DNA of 44,757 nucleotides from Gemmatimonadales bacterium (GCA_045803515.1 JBJMOX010000144.1:1-44757), one strand, 5' to 3'; shown: positions 5,057 through 19,439, counted from the first letter of the stretch. Made by a program: numbers and translations. The notes: generated by a model not told the origin, from the sequence alone.

Positions 5057-5437
5057 CTAGACGCTCCGGATCGCAGTGGAGACGAGCTCGAACTCCACCG
5101 CGATTCGTCCGACCCAAAGCCAGGCATCATCCAGCCGGCCCGCGGCGCCGTCCTTCTCCAGGGCGGCGCAGGCCTGCCCCAACCGCATCGCGCCGATGGT
5201 CCATGCCCCGCCCTTGATGGCATGCGCCGCACGGTGCACCGCGATCGCGTCAGCCCGGGCGATCGCCGCTTCGAGCTCCCGGATCCGGCGGCCGGTATCC
5301 GCAAGAAAGACGGTGGTGATCTCGAGCAGGAAGTCGGGTTGCCCCGGTTCTTGGAGACCTCGCAGGGTGGCCAGTGCCGTCTCGTCCAGCACAGGCGTTC
5401 CCCCGGAGAGCCATGGTTGGCTCAACCGGGCGATCAC
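5057..5437 (-). CDS. Stand-alone Hpt (histidine phosphotransfer) protein
   Basis: VLDETALATLRGL...FLADT...AAHAIKGGAWTIGA (HxxKG motif); GTG overlaps the upstream stop. Confidence 0.88.
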   Translation of the reverse strand: MIARLSQPWLSGGTPVLDETALATLRGLQEPGQPDFLLEITTVFLADTGRRIRELEAAIARADAIAVHRAAHAIKGGAWTIGAMRLGQACAALEKDGAAGRLDDAWLWVGRIAVEFELVSTAIRSV

Positions 5438-6033
5438 GGCCCTTCCGGAGCCGGCAGGTTGGCGATGCCCAACCGGTTGATCTCGGGAGCGATCTTCGAG
5501 TGGTAGCACTCGGGACAGATGCTGTGGGAGAGGACCAGCTCGGTGCGTTGAGCGAGGTAGCTTTCCAGGGTCGACCAGGTGTCTTGCTGGTCGCGGATTC
5601 TCCGGCAGTAGGAGCAGGTTGGCAGCAGGCCGTGAAGCTGGTGGATCTCGGTCTGCAGGTTGATGATTCGCTGGGCAACCCGGAGCCGCGCGCCCATCTC
5701 GTCGAGGTCGAATGGCTTGGTGACGAAGTCGTCGGCGCCGGCGTCCATCCCTTCCAGATAGCATCCCTTTCCGCTCAAGGCCGTCACCAGGATCACGTAG
5801 GTGTAGCGCTCCCGCCGGTCCGCCCGGATCATGCGGCAGAGCTCGAGACCGCTCAGGCCGGGCATGAGCCAGTCGGCCAGGATCACCGACGGCTGGCTCT
5901 CCTGGTACGCCTCCCACGCCTGCTTCCCATCGACCGCGACGACGCACTCGTGGCCCATCCGGTTGAGCCCGGCCAGAAGGAACTTCCGGGCAACCGTATC
6001 GTCGTCGGCGATGAGAATCTTCAGCTGGCTCAT
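5434..6033 (-). CDS. Response regulator: PleD-like receiver plus C-terminal Cys/His-rich domain
   Basis: IADDD, LADWLMP, GADDFVTKP; tail LLPTCSYCRRIRD...SHSICPEC. Confidence 0.88.
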   Translation of the reverse strand: MSQLKILIADDDTVARKFLLAGLNRMGHECVVAVDGKQAWEAYQESQPSVILADWLMPGLSGLELCRMIRADRRERYTYVILVTALSGKGCYLEGMDAGADDFVTKPFDLDEMGARLRVAQRIINLQTEIHQLHGLLPTCSYCRRIRDQQDTWSTLESYLAQRTELVLSHSICPECYHSKIAPEINRLGIANLPAPEGP

Positions 6034-6866
6034 TTTCCCTCCTGTGGGCGCAGCCGGAAGTAGGAGCCGGTCTTGGCAACGACGTCGCGGTGGTACGCGT
6101 CATCCAGATTCATGGTGGTCTCGGCGGCCCCGAGGAGGAGGTATCCGTCCGGACGGAGCACCCGGCGCAGCTTTGCCAGCACCGCTCGCTTGGTCTCCAC
6201 ATCGAAGTAGATCAGGACGTTGCGCATGAGGACGAGGTCGCAGAGCGGCACCTTCGACCAGGCCTCGTTGAGGTTCAGCTCGACGAACTCGACCATGCTG
6301 CGGATCTCTTCCACCACCTGCCACTCGACGTTTCGCTTCCGGAAGTACTTCACCAGCAAGGCAGCGGGCAGGCCGCGGTTCACTTCCGCCTGGTTGTACC
6401 GACCGGTCTTGGCGCGGTCCAGCACTTCGCTCGAGAGGTCGGTGCCGAGGATGCGGACCTGCCATCCGGCGAGCGCGGGGAAGTGCTCCCGGAGCAGCAT
6501 GGCGATGGTGTAAGGCTCCTGCCCGCTGGAGCAGGCGGCGCACCAGATCGTGAGCTGCCGTTGGATCTGCCTGCGCTGCATCAGCTCCGGAATAAGCTGA
6601 ACCCGCAACGCCTCGAAGGGATGCACGTCGCGAAAGAAGGCCGTCTCATTGGTGGCCATGGCCTCGATCACTTTCCGATGGAGACCGTTTCCCGGACTCC
6701 GTCGGAGCTCCGCCACGAGGTGGTCGATCGAGGTGAAGCCCTCGGTCCGTGCCACGGTGGAGAGGCGGGACTCGACCAGGTATTCCTTCCCGGCCTCCAG
6801 CACGATCGCCGATCGCTTGCGGACCAATTCCTGGATGTACTCGAAATCGCTCGCGCCCATTGTCAT
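6030..6866 (-). CDS. cheR: Chemotaxis methyltransferase CheR
   Basis: [48 protein letters not shown] overlap with cheB. Confidence 0.96.
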
Positions 6867-7945
6867 GACGCGCTTCTCATCGACCGGGCGCGGCCGGCAC
6901 GACGGACGATTTCCCCGGCAATCTGATCCAGCGGAAGGACCCGATCGGCCAGGCCGGCCTGGGCGACGTATCCGGGCATGCCCCAGACCACCGACGTGGC
7001 CTCGTCCTGCACGACGATCTGGCCGCCCGCCTCCTTGACCAGCTCGCAGCCACGCAGCCCGTCCTGGCCCATGCCGGTGAGCACGACGGCCAGCACCCGG
7101 CGGCCGTAGATAGACGCCACCGAGCGAAAGAGCACGTCCGCCGCCGGGCGGCAGGAGTTTTCCTGGGGCCCCTGATGGGTACGGATGAGCACGCCGCCCT
7201 CGGATCGTTCCAGCTCCATGTGCCAATCGCCAGGCGCCAGCCAGGCGACGCCAGGCTCCAGCCTGACCCCCGCGGCCGCCTCTCTCACCCGGATCCGCGA
7301 TCTGGCGTTGAGACGGTCGGCCAAGAACGTGGTGAACAGCGGCGGCATGTGCTGCACGACGAGGATGGGCACCGCGAAATCGGCGGGGAGCTCCGGCAGC
7401 AAGCCGGCCAGTGCGTTGGGACCGCCAGTGGAGACCCCGATGCACAACACTTCGATCGGGCCGGGGCCGGCTGACACCCGGGACTTCGCGCTCGGTGGCG
7501 TGGAGATTCGCGCCGGCGAAGATGACAGCCCGCCCGCCGGCCGGCACAGAGCCTTGATTCGGGGGATCAGCTCCTCACGAACCCGCTGGGTGGCGAGCAC
7601 TACGCCGCCCAGGCTGACCGGCTTGGTGATGTAGTCGCTGGCGCCCAGAGTCAGCGCCTCGATGGTGATCCGGGCGCCGCGCTCGGTCTGGGTGCTGAAC
7701 ATGATCACCGGGAGCCGGGGCCGCCGCGCGCGCAGCTCGGCCAGGGTCTGGAGCCCGTTCATCTCGGGCATCTCGACGTCGAGAATCACGACGTCCGGAT
7801 TGACCTGGTCCAGCTTGGCGAGCGCGATGTGCCCGTTCGCTGCCGCCCCGGCGATCTCCAGCGCGCTGTCGTCGGCCAGCACGTTGGAGAGCATGCGACG
7901 GATCACCACCGAATCATCGACGACGAGCACCCGGATCCTGGGCAT
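6863..7945 (-). CDS. cheB: Chemotaxis methylesterase CheB (REC plus methylesterase)
   Basis: VVDDS receiver; [34 protein letters not shown]. Confidence 0.97.
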
Positions 7946-7947
7946 GG

Positions 7948-17871: not shown

Positions 17872-18216
17872 ATGCCGGACGAGTCCTTGAAGTCTCCTGC
17901 CGTTCCTCCCGCCGATGCCGACACGGGGGCTCCAAGTCCGGCGGCACGGCAGCCGGACAGCCCCGCTCCTGGCGAGGGGAATGTCGACGCGGTGGACGTA
18001 CTCCGGGATAAGGTCGAGCTCCCGATGACTTTGCGCACTCTGCCGGATGGGTCGGACGCCGAGCGGGTACCACAGGGGACGCTCCCCCCCGAGCGAATGC
18101 GGGAGGTGCTCCGCCGCTTGGCCGAAAACGTGTATGACAGCAGCGAAGTGCAGGACGTCATCGCGCGCCGCCTTCAGAGGGATCTGGGACTTTCACCAGA
18201 GAGTGAAGCACCATGA
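17872..18216 (+). CDS. flgM: FlgM-like anti-sigma28 factor
   Basis: Low-complexity N-terminus, then DKVEL...ERMREVLRRLAENVYDSSEVQDVIARRL, resembling the FlgM C-terminal sigma-binding helices; preceded by a sigma28 promoter. Confidence 0.6.
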   Translation: MPDESLKSPAVPPADADTGAPSPAARQPDSPAPGEGNVDAVDVLRDKVELPMTLRTLPDGSDAERVPQGTLPPERMREVLRRLAENVYDSSEVQDVIARRLQRDLGLSPESEAP

Positions 18217-18590
18217 AATGTCTAGTGGTCGACGATTCCGCTACCATGCGGCGCATTGTGATCAATGCGCTCAAGACCATCGGCTACCAGGATGCGGTCG
18301 AGGCCGCCGATGGGAGAGAGGCGCTGGCAAGATGGGACGCCTCGATCGAGATGCTCATCACCGACTGGAACATGCCCAATATGGGCGGCCTCGAGCTGGT
18401 CCAGCACCTGCGGAGCGATCCGAAGACCGCGAGAATTCCCATCCTCATGGTGACCACGAGGAGCTTGAAGGAAGACATCGTCCAGGCGCTCGACGCCGGC
18501 ATCAACAATTACGTCCTCAAGCCGTTCACACCGCAGGTGCTCAAGGACAAGCTGGATCAGGTCGTTGCGTCCGCATCGGGTGCGGCCTGA
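18213..18590 (+). CDS. cheY: Chemotaxis response regulator CheY
   Basis: LVVDDSATMRRIV, ITDWNMPNMGG, ILMVTT, NYVLKPFT. Confidence 0.92.
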   Translation: MKCLVVDDSATMRRIVINALKTIGYQDAVEAADGREALARWDASIEMLITDWNMPNMGGLELVQHLRSDPKTARIPILMVTTRSLKEDIVQALDAGINNYVLKPFTPQVLKDKLDQVVASASGAA

Positions 18591-18593
18591 GCG

Positions 18594-19310
18594 GTGGAAA
18601 CCACCGGCGCGTCAGCCCTCGGCATGGAGCTGCAGACCTCGCTCGATCTGCTGCACCGACTGTTCCTCGAGGTCGAAGCCGGCAGTCCCGCGGTCAATCA
18701 GGACCACCAGGTACGCCTGGCTGTCGATGCGGTCCGTCGCCGGCCCAATCTCGCAAAGCTGCCCGATCTCCTCCTTCGCGTCTACGGCGATCTTGCGGTG
18801 GCGCTCAGTGGAATCCGGGTCACCCGCGAAACCATTCAGGAGCACTCCATGGAGCGGCTTCGCAACACACACGCGAAGCTCAGCGAGGTATCGTCGGCCA
18901 CCGAGATCGCCGCCGTGGAAATGCTCAACGGCCTGGACCGCACGCTCGGGATGATCGACCAGCTCGAGGTCGACACGAAGGAGAATCGCCGAGCCTCGCA
19001 CGAGCTGTGCGACGGGCTGCGGATGGAAGTGAACCAGCTCTACGGGTGCCTCCAGTTTCAGGACATTGTCACGCAGCAGTTGAGTGGCGTGGGCGCGCTT
19101 CTGGCCGAGATCGAGCAGCGGCTGGAGAGCGTCGCTCAGCTCTTCGACGAGCCGCCGGCCACGGATCAAACCGACGAGCAGGCGGCCAAGCTGCATCTGA
19201 ACGTGACCGCGTTCAATCCCGACGCCACCATGCGAGATGCCGCCGGGCGGCAGGCCATGATCGACGCCACCATCCGCTCCACCCGTTCCGCTCCAAGCCG
19301 TTCCAACTGA
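18594..19310 (+). CDS. cheZ: CheZ-like phosphatase
   Basis: LSEVSSATEIAAVEML and LQFQDIVTQQL (DxxxQ catalytic motif); follows cheY. Confidence 0.75.
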   Translation: METTGASALGMELQTSLDLLHRLFLEVEAGSPAVNQDHQVRLAVDAVRRRPNLAKLPDLLLRVYGDLAVALSGIRVTRETIQEHSMERLRNTHAKLSEVSSATEIAAVEMLNGLDRTLGMIDQLEVDTKENRRASHELCDGLRMEVNQLYGCLQFQDIVTQQLSGVGALLAEIEQRLESVAQLFDEPPATDQTDEQAAKLHLNVTAFNPDATMRDAAGRQAMIDATIRSTRSAPSRSN

Positions 19311-19439
19311 TGGACCCGATGCAGACCCGCCGGCGGCTCCTCCTCCCGGAGGTGGCAGTCGGCGTCTGACCCCTTCACTTCCCTCCCGTCCCATTCTTAC
19401 TTCATAGCGCGCCGCACCAATCCCCTTTTCGAGCTCGCC

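Follow-up and report, generated by a model that had tools for sequence, protein, structure and literature searches.

A sigma28/FlgM control cascade and chemotaxis pathway probably retained after loss of the flagellum in a Gemmatimonadales lineage

Can the regulators of a flagellum remain in service after the flagellum itself has been lost? This question is raised by a cluster of genes in a 44,757-nucleotide stretch of DNA from a Gemmatimonadales bacterium (GCA_045803515.1, JBJMOX010000144.1:1-44757; the whole stretch is hereafter called the window), which is the entire contig C99 of a metagenome-assembled genome (MAG), G000. The cluster encodes the flagellar sigma factor FliA (sigma28), a candidate FlgM anti-sigma factor, FlhG, a sigma54-dependent activator, and chemotaxis (Che) proteins. 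The original prediction described it as a complete flagellar regulatory cascade with no flagellum genes, and proposed either that the structural genes are encoded elsewhere in the genome or that a streamlined module has been repurposed, as in the WhiG-RsiG system of Streptomyces. We consider it likely, with a probability of roughly 0.7, that the control cascade and the chemotaxis pathway were kept as a functional module after the flagellum was lost, and that this lineage builds no flagellum.

The G000 assembly (4.31 Mb, 438 contigs) is 80% complete and 2.6% contaminated. Since the G+C content of the window is high (65–70% throughout), long spurious open reading frames (ORFs) are common. Therefore, genes were called with a codon-usage model trained on the long ORFs of G000, and the calls were checked with Pfam. 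The genus was represented by 25 genomes, namely G000 and 24 relatives, including G004 (3 contigs), G020 (8 contigs), G023 and G024 (both 99% complete), and the unpublished G003. Three flagellated genomes from a sister family of the same order (G025, G029, and G037) were used as comparators together with G126, a flagellated member of another genus in the same family (97% complete, 4 contigs, with FliG). A sample of 150 genomes of the family was surveyed for FliG_C and FliA orthologues, and the cut-off for a FliA orthologue in the genus survey was E≤1e-50. The FliA-bearing records closest to the FliA of G000 were Gemmatimonadota or Gemmatimonadaceae MAGs.

The cluster spans positions 5057 to 19310, flanked on the left by an opp-type ABC transporter and a CsbD-like gene, and on the right by a PhzF-family gene. 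All of its 17 ORFs, over approximately 14 kb, were open, as had been claimed, and neighbours in presumed operons were spaced by -4 to +41 nucleotides (nt). The genes of the cluster and its flanks are as follows (aa, amino acids).

3713–4696, + strand: oppF-like ABC ATPase, left flank (Pfam); syntenic in relatives of the genus with 80–86% identity; the homologue bordering the G126 flagellar locus shares 68%
4780–5046, + strand: CsbD-like gene, left flank (Pfam); a conserved anchor of the locus together with oppF
5057–5392, - strand: Hpt-domain protein (Pfam Hpt, E 2.7e-13); last gene of the che operon
5434–6033, - strand: response regulator with a Cys-rich C-terminal tail (Pfam Response_reg, E 3.9e-24); its G126 counterpart at the corresponding position is 53% identical
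6030–6860, - strand: CheR methyltransferase (Pfam CheR, E 6.7e-56, and CheR_N); 59% identical to that of G126
6863–7945, - strand: CheB methylesterase with a receiver domain (Pfam CheB_methylest, E 2.5e-64)
7948–8394, - strand: CheW (Pfam CheW, E 3.5e-32)
8395–10593, - strand: CheA with Hpt, dimerisation, HATPase, and CheW-like domains (Pfam)
10764–11450, + strand: small cytoplasmic histidine kinase (Pfam HATPase_c, E 1.2e-21)
11465–11875 and 11910–12335, - strand: two single-domain response regulators (Pfam Response_reg)
12559–13665, - strand: putative cyclic di-GMP (c-di-GMP) phosphodiesterase with receiver and HD-GYP domains (Pfam Response_reg, and HD_5 with E 3.7e-33; HD at residue 211 and GYP at residue 274)
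13662–14096, - strand: FlgN-like chaperone (Pfam FlgN, 21 bits, cut-off 30.5)
14105–14884, - strand: FliA, sigma28 (Pfam sigma70 r2/r3/r4)
14881–15738, - strand: FlhG/FleN-type MinD-like ATPase (Pfam ParA/CbiA/AAA_31)
16069–17517, - strand: sigma54-dependent response-regulator activator, FlrC/FleR/FlbD-like (Pfam receiver, Sigma54_activat, and HTH_8, E 1.7e-71)
17872–18216, + strand: candidate FlgM-type anti-sigma28 factor of 114 aa; its stop codon overlaps the start of cheY
18213–18590, + strand: CheY (Pfam Response_reg, E 5.8e-25); 66–67% identical to the CheY of the flagellated G126 and G025
18594–19310, + strand: CheZ-like phosphatase in the position after cheY (Pfam CheZ, E 5.1e-5, 23.7 bits, cut-off 30.7)
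19464–20234, + strand: PhzF-family gene, right flank (Pfam PhzC-PhzF); the conserved anchor on the right, which keeps its place in relatives of the genus and closes the G126 flagellar locus at its far end

The genes and promoters described were confirmed, the genes by Pfam and the codon-usage calls and the promoters by a motif search. Pfam also found no flagellar structural, motor, export, or flagellin gene among the proteins of the window, in agreement with the original prediction. In contrast, the extent and gene list given for the cluster required correction. The cluster ends at 19310 rather than 19369 because the ORF at 18047–19369 is spurious, the supposed single ORF at 5057–6103 is two genes, and the kinase at 10764–11450 and the two single receivers had been omitted. 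The flgM-cheY-cheZ genes lie on the + strand, divergent from the sigma54 activator. No gene for a methyl-accepting chemotaxis protein (MCP) was identified in the window with Pfam, and no Rfam family matched it.

The origin of the cluster is apparent from the flagellated relative G126, which carries a flagellum/chemotaxis locus of approximately 85 kb between its oppF and phzF homologues. This locus begins with Hpt, the response regulator (RR) with the Cys-rich tail, CheR, CheB, and, after an interval, MCPs, CheW, CheA, an MCP, MotA, MotB, RR-HD-GYP, a histidine kinase (HK), and CsrA. It continues with FlgK, FlgN, FlgJ, FlgI, FlgH, FlgA, FlgG, FlgF, an unnamed 188-aa ORF, FliA, FlhG, FlhF, FlhA, and FlhB, followed by FliR, FliQ, FliOP, FliN, FliM, FliL, FlgE, FlgD, and, after an interval, FliI, FliH, FliG, FliF, FliE, FlgC, FlgB, and the sigma54 activator. 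The last part holds FlgL and FliW, then FliC, FliD, and FliS, then FlgM, CheY, and CheZ, and finally PhzF, with an interval before each of the last three groups. The cluster is colinear with this locus, its genes having the same order and orientation, and lacks five blocks: the MCPs with motAB; csrA-flgK; flgJ to flgF with the next ORF; flhF to flgB; and flgL to fliS. Judging by this colinearity, we concluded that the cluster is the native Gemmatimonadaceae flagellum/chemotaxis locus after the deletion of its structural, motor, and export genes. The deletions left no recognizable scars; a tblastn search of all G126 locus proteins against positions 5000–19500 (E≤1) gave three chance-level intergenic matches, the best with E 0.8–0.9.

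The individual proteins agree with this origin. FliA of the window is 64% identical to the G126 FliA encoded between flgF and flhG, 45% to that of G025, and approximately 42% to FliA of the Vibrio/Pseudomonas type. FlhG is 54% identical to the product of the G126 gene between flhF and fliA, and the sigma54 activator shares 72% identity with the activator next to flgB in G126 and 58% with its G025 counterpart. CheA is 61–64% identical to the flagellar-locus CheA of G126 and 46–53% to that of G025. The FlgN-like protein is 48% identical to its G126 counterpart and 33% to FlgN of G025, which is encoded beside flgK and scores 61.9 bits in Pfam; its position agrees. Since the FlgN clients FlgK and FlgL were not found in G000, we regard it as related to FlgN by descent but unable to serve in the canonical role. 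The CheZ-like orthologues after cheY in G025 and G126 match Pfam equally weakly and over the same part of the model, and the window protein carries FQDIVTQQ at residue 155, which we take to resemble the CheZ active site. The Hpt protein is 33% identical to the position-matched G126 gene product, yet its best match in G126 is a different protein of 892 aa; therefore, orthology is not established in this case. The tail of the receiver at 5434–6033 contains two Cys pairs (CxxC ... CxxC) with no Pfam model over it, and this gene is kept in the G126 che operon.

The deleted genes are not encoded elsewhere in G000 as far as our searches reached. Flagellin_N, FliG_C, and Flg_bb_rod had no match anywhere in the genome. 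We also searched the whole assembly by tblastn with 170 ORFs from the flagellar loci of G025 and G029. Among the 32 G025 proteins labelled by Pfam as flagellar structure, motor, export, or assembly, 29 had no match at E≤1e-3. The queries FliI, FlhF, and FlhA matched only an ATP-synthase-type ATPase, a signal recognition particle (SRP)-type GTPase, and proteins on contig C68, respectively; FlhF, the partner of FlhG, was otherwise not found in G000, its sole match being this generic GTPase on C257. The G025 and G029 queries that matched the window were FlgN, FliA, FlhG, the sigma54 activator, CheY, CheA, CheW, CheB, CheR, and CheZ. Within the genus, none of the markers FliG_C, Flagellin_N, and FliP was detected in any of the 25 genomes (0 of 24 without G003), whereas all three were present in G025, G029, and G037. 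FliG_C was also absent from three further genomes of the genus. With profile and tblastn searches negative, the genus devoid of the three markers, and the ancestral site contiguous with its genes deleted, the suggestion that the structural genes lie elsewhere is effectively refuted, as far as an 80%-complete MAG allows.

The FHIPEP matches on C68 were considered as a remnant of FlhA and rejected because they are two soluble proteins consisting of the C-terminal domain only, with 27% identity to FlhA, beside a Pvc16_N gene. These tandem genes (3–2234 and 2291–3961) encode FHIPEP C-terminal cytoplasmic domains (E 9e-37 and 1e-29; the first behind TPR repeats) directly upstream of the Pvc16_N contractile-injection gene (4512–5093 nearby), and no type III secretion apparatus was found in G000. 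In another genome without FliG or flagellin, G027, a 27-residue FliP-like scrap lies in a 43-aa frame (C2, 1803165–1803245) and is probably a scar of a lost flagellar locus.

The genes left behind appear to be maintained. The original prediction had called for an analysis of nonsynonymous to synonymous substitution rates (dN/dS), and values of 0.1–0.5 were obtained for every gene compared; these values are rough because dS was at least 1, and thus saturated, in most pairs. In the one less saturated pair, FliA and a 77%-identical metagenome copy, dN/dS was 0.17 (NG86) or 0.11 (YN00). We also compared branch lengths by simple distance in three taxa, with G025 as the outgroup and G126 as the single comparator. 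The G000/G126 ratios were 0.82 for CheA, 1.26 for CheW, 1.20 for CheB, 0.83 for CheR, 0.71 for CheY, 1.27 for CheZ, 0.89 for FliA, 1.06 for the activator, and 0.82 for FlgN. FlhG, in contrast, evolves 2.3-fold faster in G000 than in G126. Since the Che proteins, FliA, and the activator evolve at rates similar to those of a flagellated relative, retained function is favoured over decay. FliA of the more reduced sister species evolves 1.5–2.5 times faster than that of G000, while the OppF and PhzF controls gave 0.6–1.2.

The promoters of the cluster were also preserved. The following elements were identified.

10641–10668, - strand: sigma28-type promoter CTCAAGT-N14-GCCGATA, 48 nt before cheA
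15792–15807, - strand: sigma54 -24/-12 promoter TGGTATGCCGGTTGCT, 53 nt before flhG
15923–15943, - strand: possible activator-binding site CCGGAAG...CTTCGTCCGG, seen by eye
17820–17847, + strand: sigma28-type promoter CTCAAGT-N14-GCCGATA, 24 nt before flgM

The window contains exactly two copies of CTCAAGT-N14-GCCGATA, against 0.00 expected from shuffles, and the genome-wide scan that had been proposed showed that these are the only strict copies in G000. A site homologous to that before flgM precedes flgM in G004, G009, G014, G126, and G025, and sigma28-type motifs are located in G126 before motA, flgL, fliC, flgM, and the operon ending in cheA. The cheA and flgM sites are, therefore, predicted to be cognate FliA promoters. 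Near-identical sigma54 elements are present upstream of a flgB-like gene in G126 (CGGTATGCCGATTGCT) and upstream of flhG/fliA in reduced loci, and rpoN is present in G000, split across two contig ends. Repeats of the CGGAA..TTCCG type that resemble the element at 15923–15943 recur in the reduced loci of relatives, as seen by eye and without statistics. The comparison of promoter positions with G126 suggests that a regulator or che gene ended up behind a promoter after each deletion. No RNA runs were listed as matching window positions 9400–19399; four soil DNA runs from one study share small parts of the sequence.

We attempted to define a wider FliA regulon by motif, which was not successful. 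The exact pattern TCAAGT-N13-15-GCCGATA occurs at 4 sites in G000 and 27 across 41 genomes, with 3 for the reversed control; since the flagellated controls hold only 0–1 exact sites, the motif count does not separate genomes with FliA from those without it. When up to one mismatch was permitted, G000 had 17 sigma28-like sites, 7 of which were intergenic and upstream of a co-oriented gene. Two sites outside the cluster were noted. At C320 8499–8524, TCAAGTTCATGT...GCCGATA lies approximately 125 nt upstream of a conserved ORF of 86–88 aa without a Pfam family, and this type of site is also found in ten other genomes of the genus. Since these include G001, G013, G019, and G024, which lack a FliA orthologue, another sigma factor or another reason may apply. 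At C187 13191–16519, TCAAGT-N13-GCCGATA stands 68 nt ahead of a YfiR/HmsC-like gene, with a hybrid-kinase gene after it (CHASE8-HAMP-HisKA-HATPase-2 receivers-Hpt). This operon is a possible additional FliA target on the basis of its motif; no counterpart of the site was found among the loci fetched from relatives.

The identity of the FlgM candidate required separate consideration. The 114-aa protein had no Pfam match at E≤0.05, including PF04316, and no significant sequence match in the PDB (best E 0.13, to an unrelated protein). It has 21 homologues with 53–94% identity, and an alignment of 12 of them with the ORFs of G004 and G009 showed strong conservation of the C-terminal part. A profile of 15 homologues matched a G148 protein (E 2.8e-13), which in turn matched the full length of the Pfam FlgM model (E 8.1e-5, 23.2 bits, cut-off 25). 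The orthologue in G126 (113 aa, starting MSIDP, with the same C-terminal motif) is encoded behind a sigma28 motif and directly before cheY, and is also without a Pfam match, although it comes from a flagellated genome. A structural model of the FliA-FlgM complex gave an ipSAE of 0.83, against 0.00 for the best control, with a contact agreement across runs of at least 93% and a partner pLDDT of at least 72. In calibration, 116 of 157 solved complexes reached this mark, as did 2 of 215 mismatched pairs. The modelled interface places FlgM residues 69–107 on FliA residues 193–254 (region 4). Since a sigma28/FlgM complex has already been solved, this result indicates likeness to that complex rather than binding of this particular pair. 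We concluded that the product of 17872–18216 is probably a divergent FlgM-type anti-sigma28 factor, which is predicted to bind FliA region 4. FlgM is normally inactivated by export through the flagellar type III apparatus. The membrane part of FlhA, FlhB, and FliPQR were not found in G000 or the genus; therefore, the inhibition by FlgM must be relieved in another way. A second sigma/anti-sigma pair is encoded at window positions 29163–31440, where an extracytoplasmic function (ECF) sigma factor (29163–29810) and a zf-HC2 anti-sigma factor (29807–30070) precede an RCC1-repeat protein (30325–31440).

The chemotaxis pathway has candidate inputs and no motor. Among the 7 MCPsignal matches of G000 are tandem Cache-type MCPs on C133, which share 55–56% identity with the che-cluster MCPs of G025. 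CheA, CheW, CheY, CheB, CheR, and MCPs are present, whereas the switch proteins FliM, FliN, and FliG were not found in G000, so that the output of chemotaxis must be something other than the motor. CheA of the window type (at least 50% identity) occurs only in G000 and the flagellated G025 among 41 genomes; paralogous CheAs with 33–43% identity to it occur in 39 of the 41 Gemmatimonadales genomes, flagellated or not. G000 also has a second chemosensory operon (C255, 7002–14999), which encodes a receiver, CheA, CheW, an MCP, a HEAT-repeat protein, CheR, and CheB, and is adjoined by a Ser/Thr kinase gene. Type II/IV secretion ATPases gave 8 matches over the cut-off in G000. One of them, of the PilB/MshE type (C337, 40959–43073), combines an N-terminal MshEN domain with a C-terminal receiver domain.

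A scheme for the operation of the cluster may be proposed; expression, the pairing of kinase and activator, the relief of FlgM, and the output are our suppositions, built on the observed gene content, promoters, colinearity, and rates. A homologue of the kinase at 10764–11450 adjoins fliA in G004, G009, G092, G094, G148, and G160, and we infer that this kinase is a candidate partner of the sigma54 activator. The activator, probably phosphorylated by it, would fire the sigma54 promoter. This promoter presumably once drove flgB and, after the deletion of flgB to flhF, would drive flhG, fliA, flgN, and RR-HD-GYP. FliA would then read the two sigma28 promoters and express flgM-cheY-cheZ and the operon of cheA, cheW, cheB, cheR, the RR, and Hpt. 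FlgM on FliA region 4 would close a negative feedback loop, with relief by turnover or titration rather than export. Sigma28 and FlgM would form a circuit complete in itself, through which the whole chemosensory pathway of flagellar type is expressed and acts on targets other than a motor. The nearest candidates for its output may be products of the same operons: the receiver-HD-GYP protein, the receiver with the Cys-rich tail, both single receivers, and the Hpt protein. We tentatively speculate that selection has kept the pathway and the sigma54-to-sigma28/FlgM cascade because they steer a non-flagellar output, such as c-di-GMP turnover through the receiver-HD-GYP protein or type IV pili, with FlgM as a secretion-independent feedback inhibitor; this more specific proposal is plausible, but the odds are somewhat against it.

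The relatives of G000 carry smaller versions of the cluster at the same oppF/csbD-phzF site. A FliA orthologue was found in 16 of the 24 genus relatives, and the copy in G018 is partial with an in-frame TGA. G009 has the HK, a flgN fragment, FliA, FlhG, the activator, FlgM, CheY, and CheZ without cheAWBR. G004 has RR-HD-GYP, the HK, FlgN, FliA, FlhG, the activator, and FlgM; G007 has the activator, RR-HD-GYP, and FliA; and G023, G022, G015, G017, G002, and G134 have only an RR-HD-GYP gene and FliA. The FlgM profile additionally found short FlgM-like ORFs (53–64 aa) in G015, G022, G007, G092, and G094. In the family sample, FliG_C was present in 23 genomes and a FliA orthologue in 31; both were found in 21, and FliA without FliG in 10. 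One of these 10, G066, is probably flagellated, with flhA-flhF-flhG-fliA on a 2.7-kb contig. The non-flagellated G092, G094, G148, and G160, which belong to other genera, retain the activator, the kinase, and one or both of FliA and FlhG, and G148 still has a 76-aa scar of a flgB-like gene.

G000, G004, and G009 share three adjacencies: activator-flhG, fliA-flgN, and the activator divergent from flgM. The second holds with qualifications, as flgN is only a fragment in G009 and a 64-aa ORF separates the two genes in G004. The simplest history suggested by these adjacencies is one loss before G000, G004, and G009 split, followed by the differential loss of the remaining genes. We examined whether the deletion junctions are shared, and this was not supported; the 64-aa ORF of G004 did not significantly resemble the gene that follows fliA in G126 or G025 (E 5.8). 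In the FliA tree, the genus forms a clade with a support of 92/91, in which the non-flagellated G004 branches first and G000 next. A long stem (0.62) leads to the minimal-locus species, and G007 is a long branch of uncertain place. G025 has a second fliA beside a second sigma54 activator, away from its flagellar locus (C1, 1718166–1720473; 46% and 56% identical to those of the window, respectively), and this second FliA groups with the flagellar FliA copies of its own family.

Several of the present results weigh against a functional module. The MAG is incomplete, the dN/dS values come mostly from saturated pairs, and the rate test depends on one comparator. FlhG is accelerated and the FlgN-like gene has no remaining clients. 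There are few candidate sigma28 sites outside the cluster, the best-conserved of which also occurs in genomes without FliA, and the 400 nt upstream of the MCP genes of G000 contained no sigma28-like motif. FliA was not found in 8 of the 24 genus relatives, so that the genus can dispense with it. The age assigned to the loss comes from gene adjacency only, because a common origin of the junctions was not demonstrated at the sequence level. Moreover, the series of sister species resembles ongoing decay, in which G000 could be the slowest to decay. A neutral relic, in which the regulators and che genes are the last undeleted pieces and are silent or expressed without consequence, would agree with these graded remnants, with the missing or, in G018, interrupted FliA of the relatives, with the flgB-like and FliP scars of G148 and G027, and with the state of FlgN and FlhG. 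However, all 17 ORFs over 14 kb are open and closely packed or overlapping, neither promoter type is disrupted, 9 of 10 genes evolve at the rates of a flagellated relative, and dN/dS is below 0.5 throughout. Synonymous divergence from sisters with the same adjacencies is at least 1, which is long enough to destroy unconstrained ORFs, and each of the deletions spared a regulator and kept a promoter in front of a gene. We consider a relic unlikely on this balance, although it is the strongest competitor of a retained module.

The recruitment of sigma28 to a developmental or lifestyle programme, as the original prediction envisaged, is considerably less probable. Streptomyces WhiG is a sigma28-family factor for sporulation, and its anti-sigma factor RsiG is armed by c-di-GMP. 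G000 resembles this system in having a sigma28-family factor in a lineage without flagella and a gene for a c-di-GMP enzyme nearby. A switch of this kind, with the anti-sigma factor controlled by c-di-GMP through the adjacent HD-GYP protein, could draw on the receiver-HD-GYP gene in the fliA operon of G000, on a different receiver-HD-GYP gene beside fliA in G002, G004, G007, G009 (a fragment), G015, G017, G022, G023, and G134, and on the faster evolution of FliA in reduced-locus species, which could reflect a change in function. However, the anti-sigma factor of G000 appears to be of the FlgM type and models onto region 4 in the manner of FlgM, and no RsiG homologue was seen, although no search for RsiG was made. 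The link to c-di-GMP is limited to the neighbouring HD-GYP gene, and the HD-GYP genes of the sister species are not orthologues of it (approximately 31% identity). The well-supported sigma28 targets are flgM-cheYZ and the che operon, that is, chemotaxis genes, and no developmental genes were identified as targets. The prediction of a repurposed, streamlined module thus holds for retention, as judged by open ORFs, conserved promoters, dN/dS below 1, and rates, and fails for the analogy with WhiG-RsiG. Hardly credible, finally, is a flagellated organism with its structural genes in the unassembled 20% or in a second, horizontally acquired set. Clustered flagellar genes could drop out together in the binning of an 80%-complete MAG of 438 contigs; nevertheless, the ancestral site is assembled without a gap in the window, the three markers are missing across the genus including G004, G023, and G024, and the tblastn search left most flagellar proteins unmatched. 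We therefore favour a module retained after loss of the flagellum.

The retention of flagellar regulators after the loss of the flagellum is not undescribed, as the original prediction had supposed; it is a known pattern from non-flagellated Legionella. A search of the literature on Gemmatimonadota with FliA or with flagellar, chemotaxis, or motility terms gave nothing on this topic among the papers listed, judged by title. In Legionella longbeachae, the flagellar biosynthesis genes are gone except FliA, FleN, FleR/FleS, and FlgD, and the genes bordering the flagellar clusters are conserved, suggesting deletion (Cazalet et al. 2010, PMC2824747). This species also has a chemotaxis system (CheA, CheY, CheW, and CheR) without a flagellum (PMC2824747, PMC5655016). 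In clade III Legionella, including L. oakridgensis, only fliA and flgM are kept, the expression of flgM is sigma28-dependent, and FlgM seems to be degraded in a growth-phase-dependent manner rather than secreted (PMC5655016).

G000 shows the same pattern of flagellar-regulon remnants. As in L. longbeachae, as far as these accounts describe it, the structural genes have been lost, the flanks are conserved, and FliA, FlhG/FleN, a sigma54 system, and chemotaxis are kept. Since L. longbeachae is an intracellular pathogen among the Gammaproteobacteria, in another phylum, the likeness appears to be convergent. The differences are those of arrangement and content. L. longbeachae is described as having remnants in several loci and a separate che cluster, whereas G000 has one 14-kb block that is colinear with its ancestor, with che operons behind sigma28 promoters. 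L. longbeachae keeps FlgD, and FlgM and FlgN are not listed among its retained genes in these reports; G000 keeps FlgM and FlgN without FlgD. The end state of the genus, of the G023, G022, and G015 type, in which fliA and a short flgM-like gene persist without a flagellar regulon, recalls L. oakridgensis and its clade as reported. G000 also resembles clade III in that flgM lies behind a sigma28 promoter and its product must be inactivated without a basal body. However, the window holds a far fuller remnant of 17 genes.

Three points make this locus of interest, although G000 is an uncultured soil MAG, which is a practical limit: the convergence with Legionella, the clean derivation of the window by deletion at a single locus, and the natural series within the genus. 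The series is graded at one site, from regulators with che genes through regulators only to fliA with flgM, and is anchored by the full locus of a flagellated relative. It may assist in clarifying which parts are kept, the order of loss, and the partner of CheY without a motor, the last of which has been an open question for L. longbeachae since 2010. If a functional module has been retained, the genus is a natural deletion series that shows which parts of a flagellar regulon can be re-used alone. Sigma28, FlgM, FlhG/FleN, and the sigma54 activator tend to survive the loss of the flagellum in distant phyla, and in G000 they do so together with a chemotaxis pathway. This convergence with Legionella suggests that these regulators have work beyond flagellar assembly.

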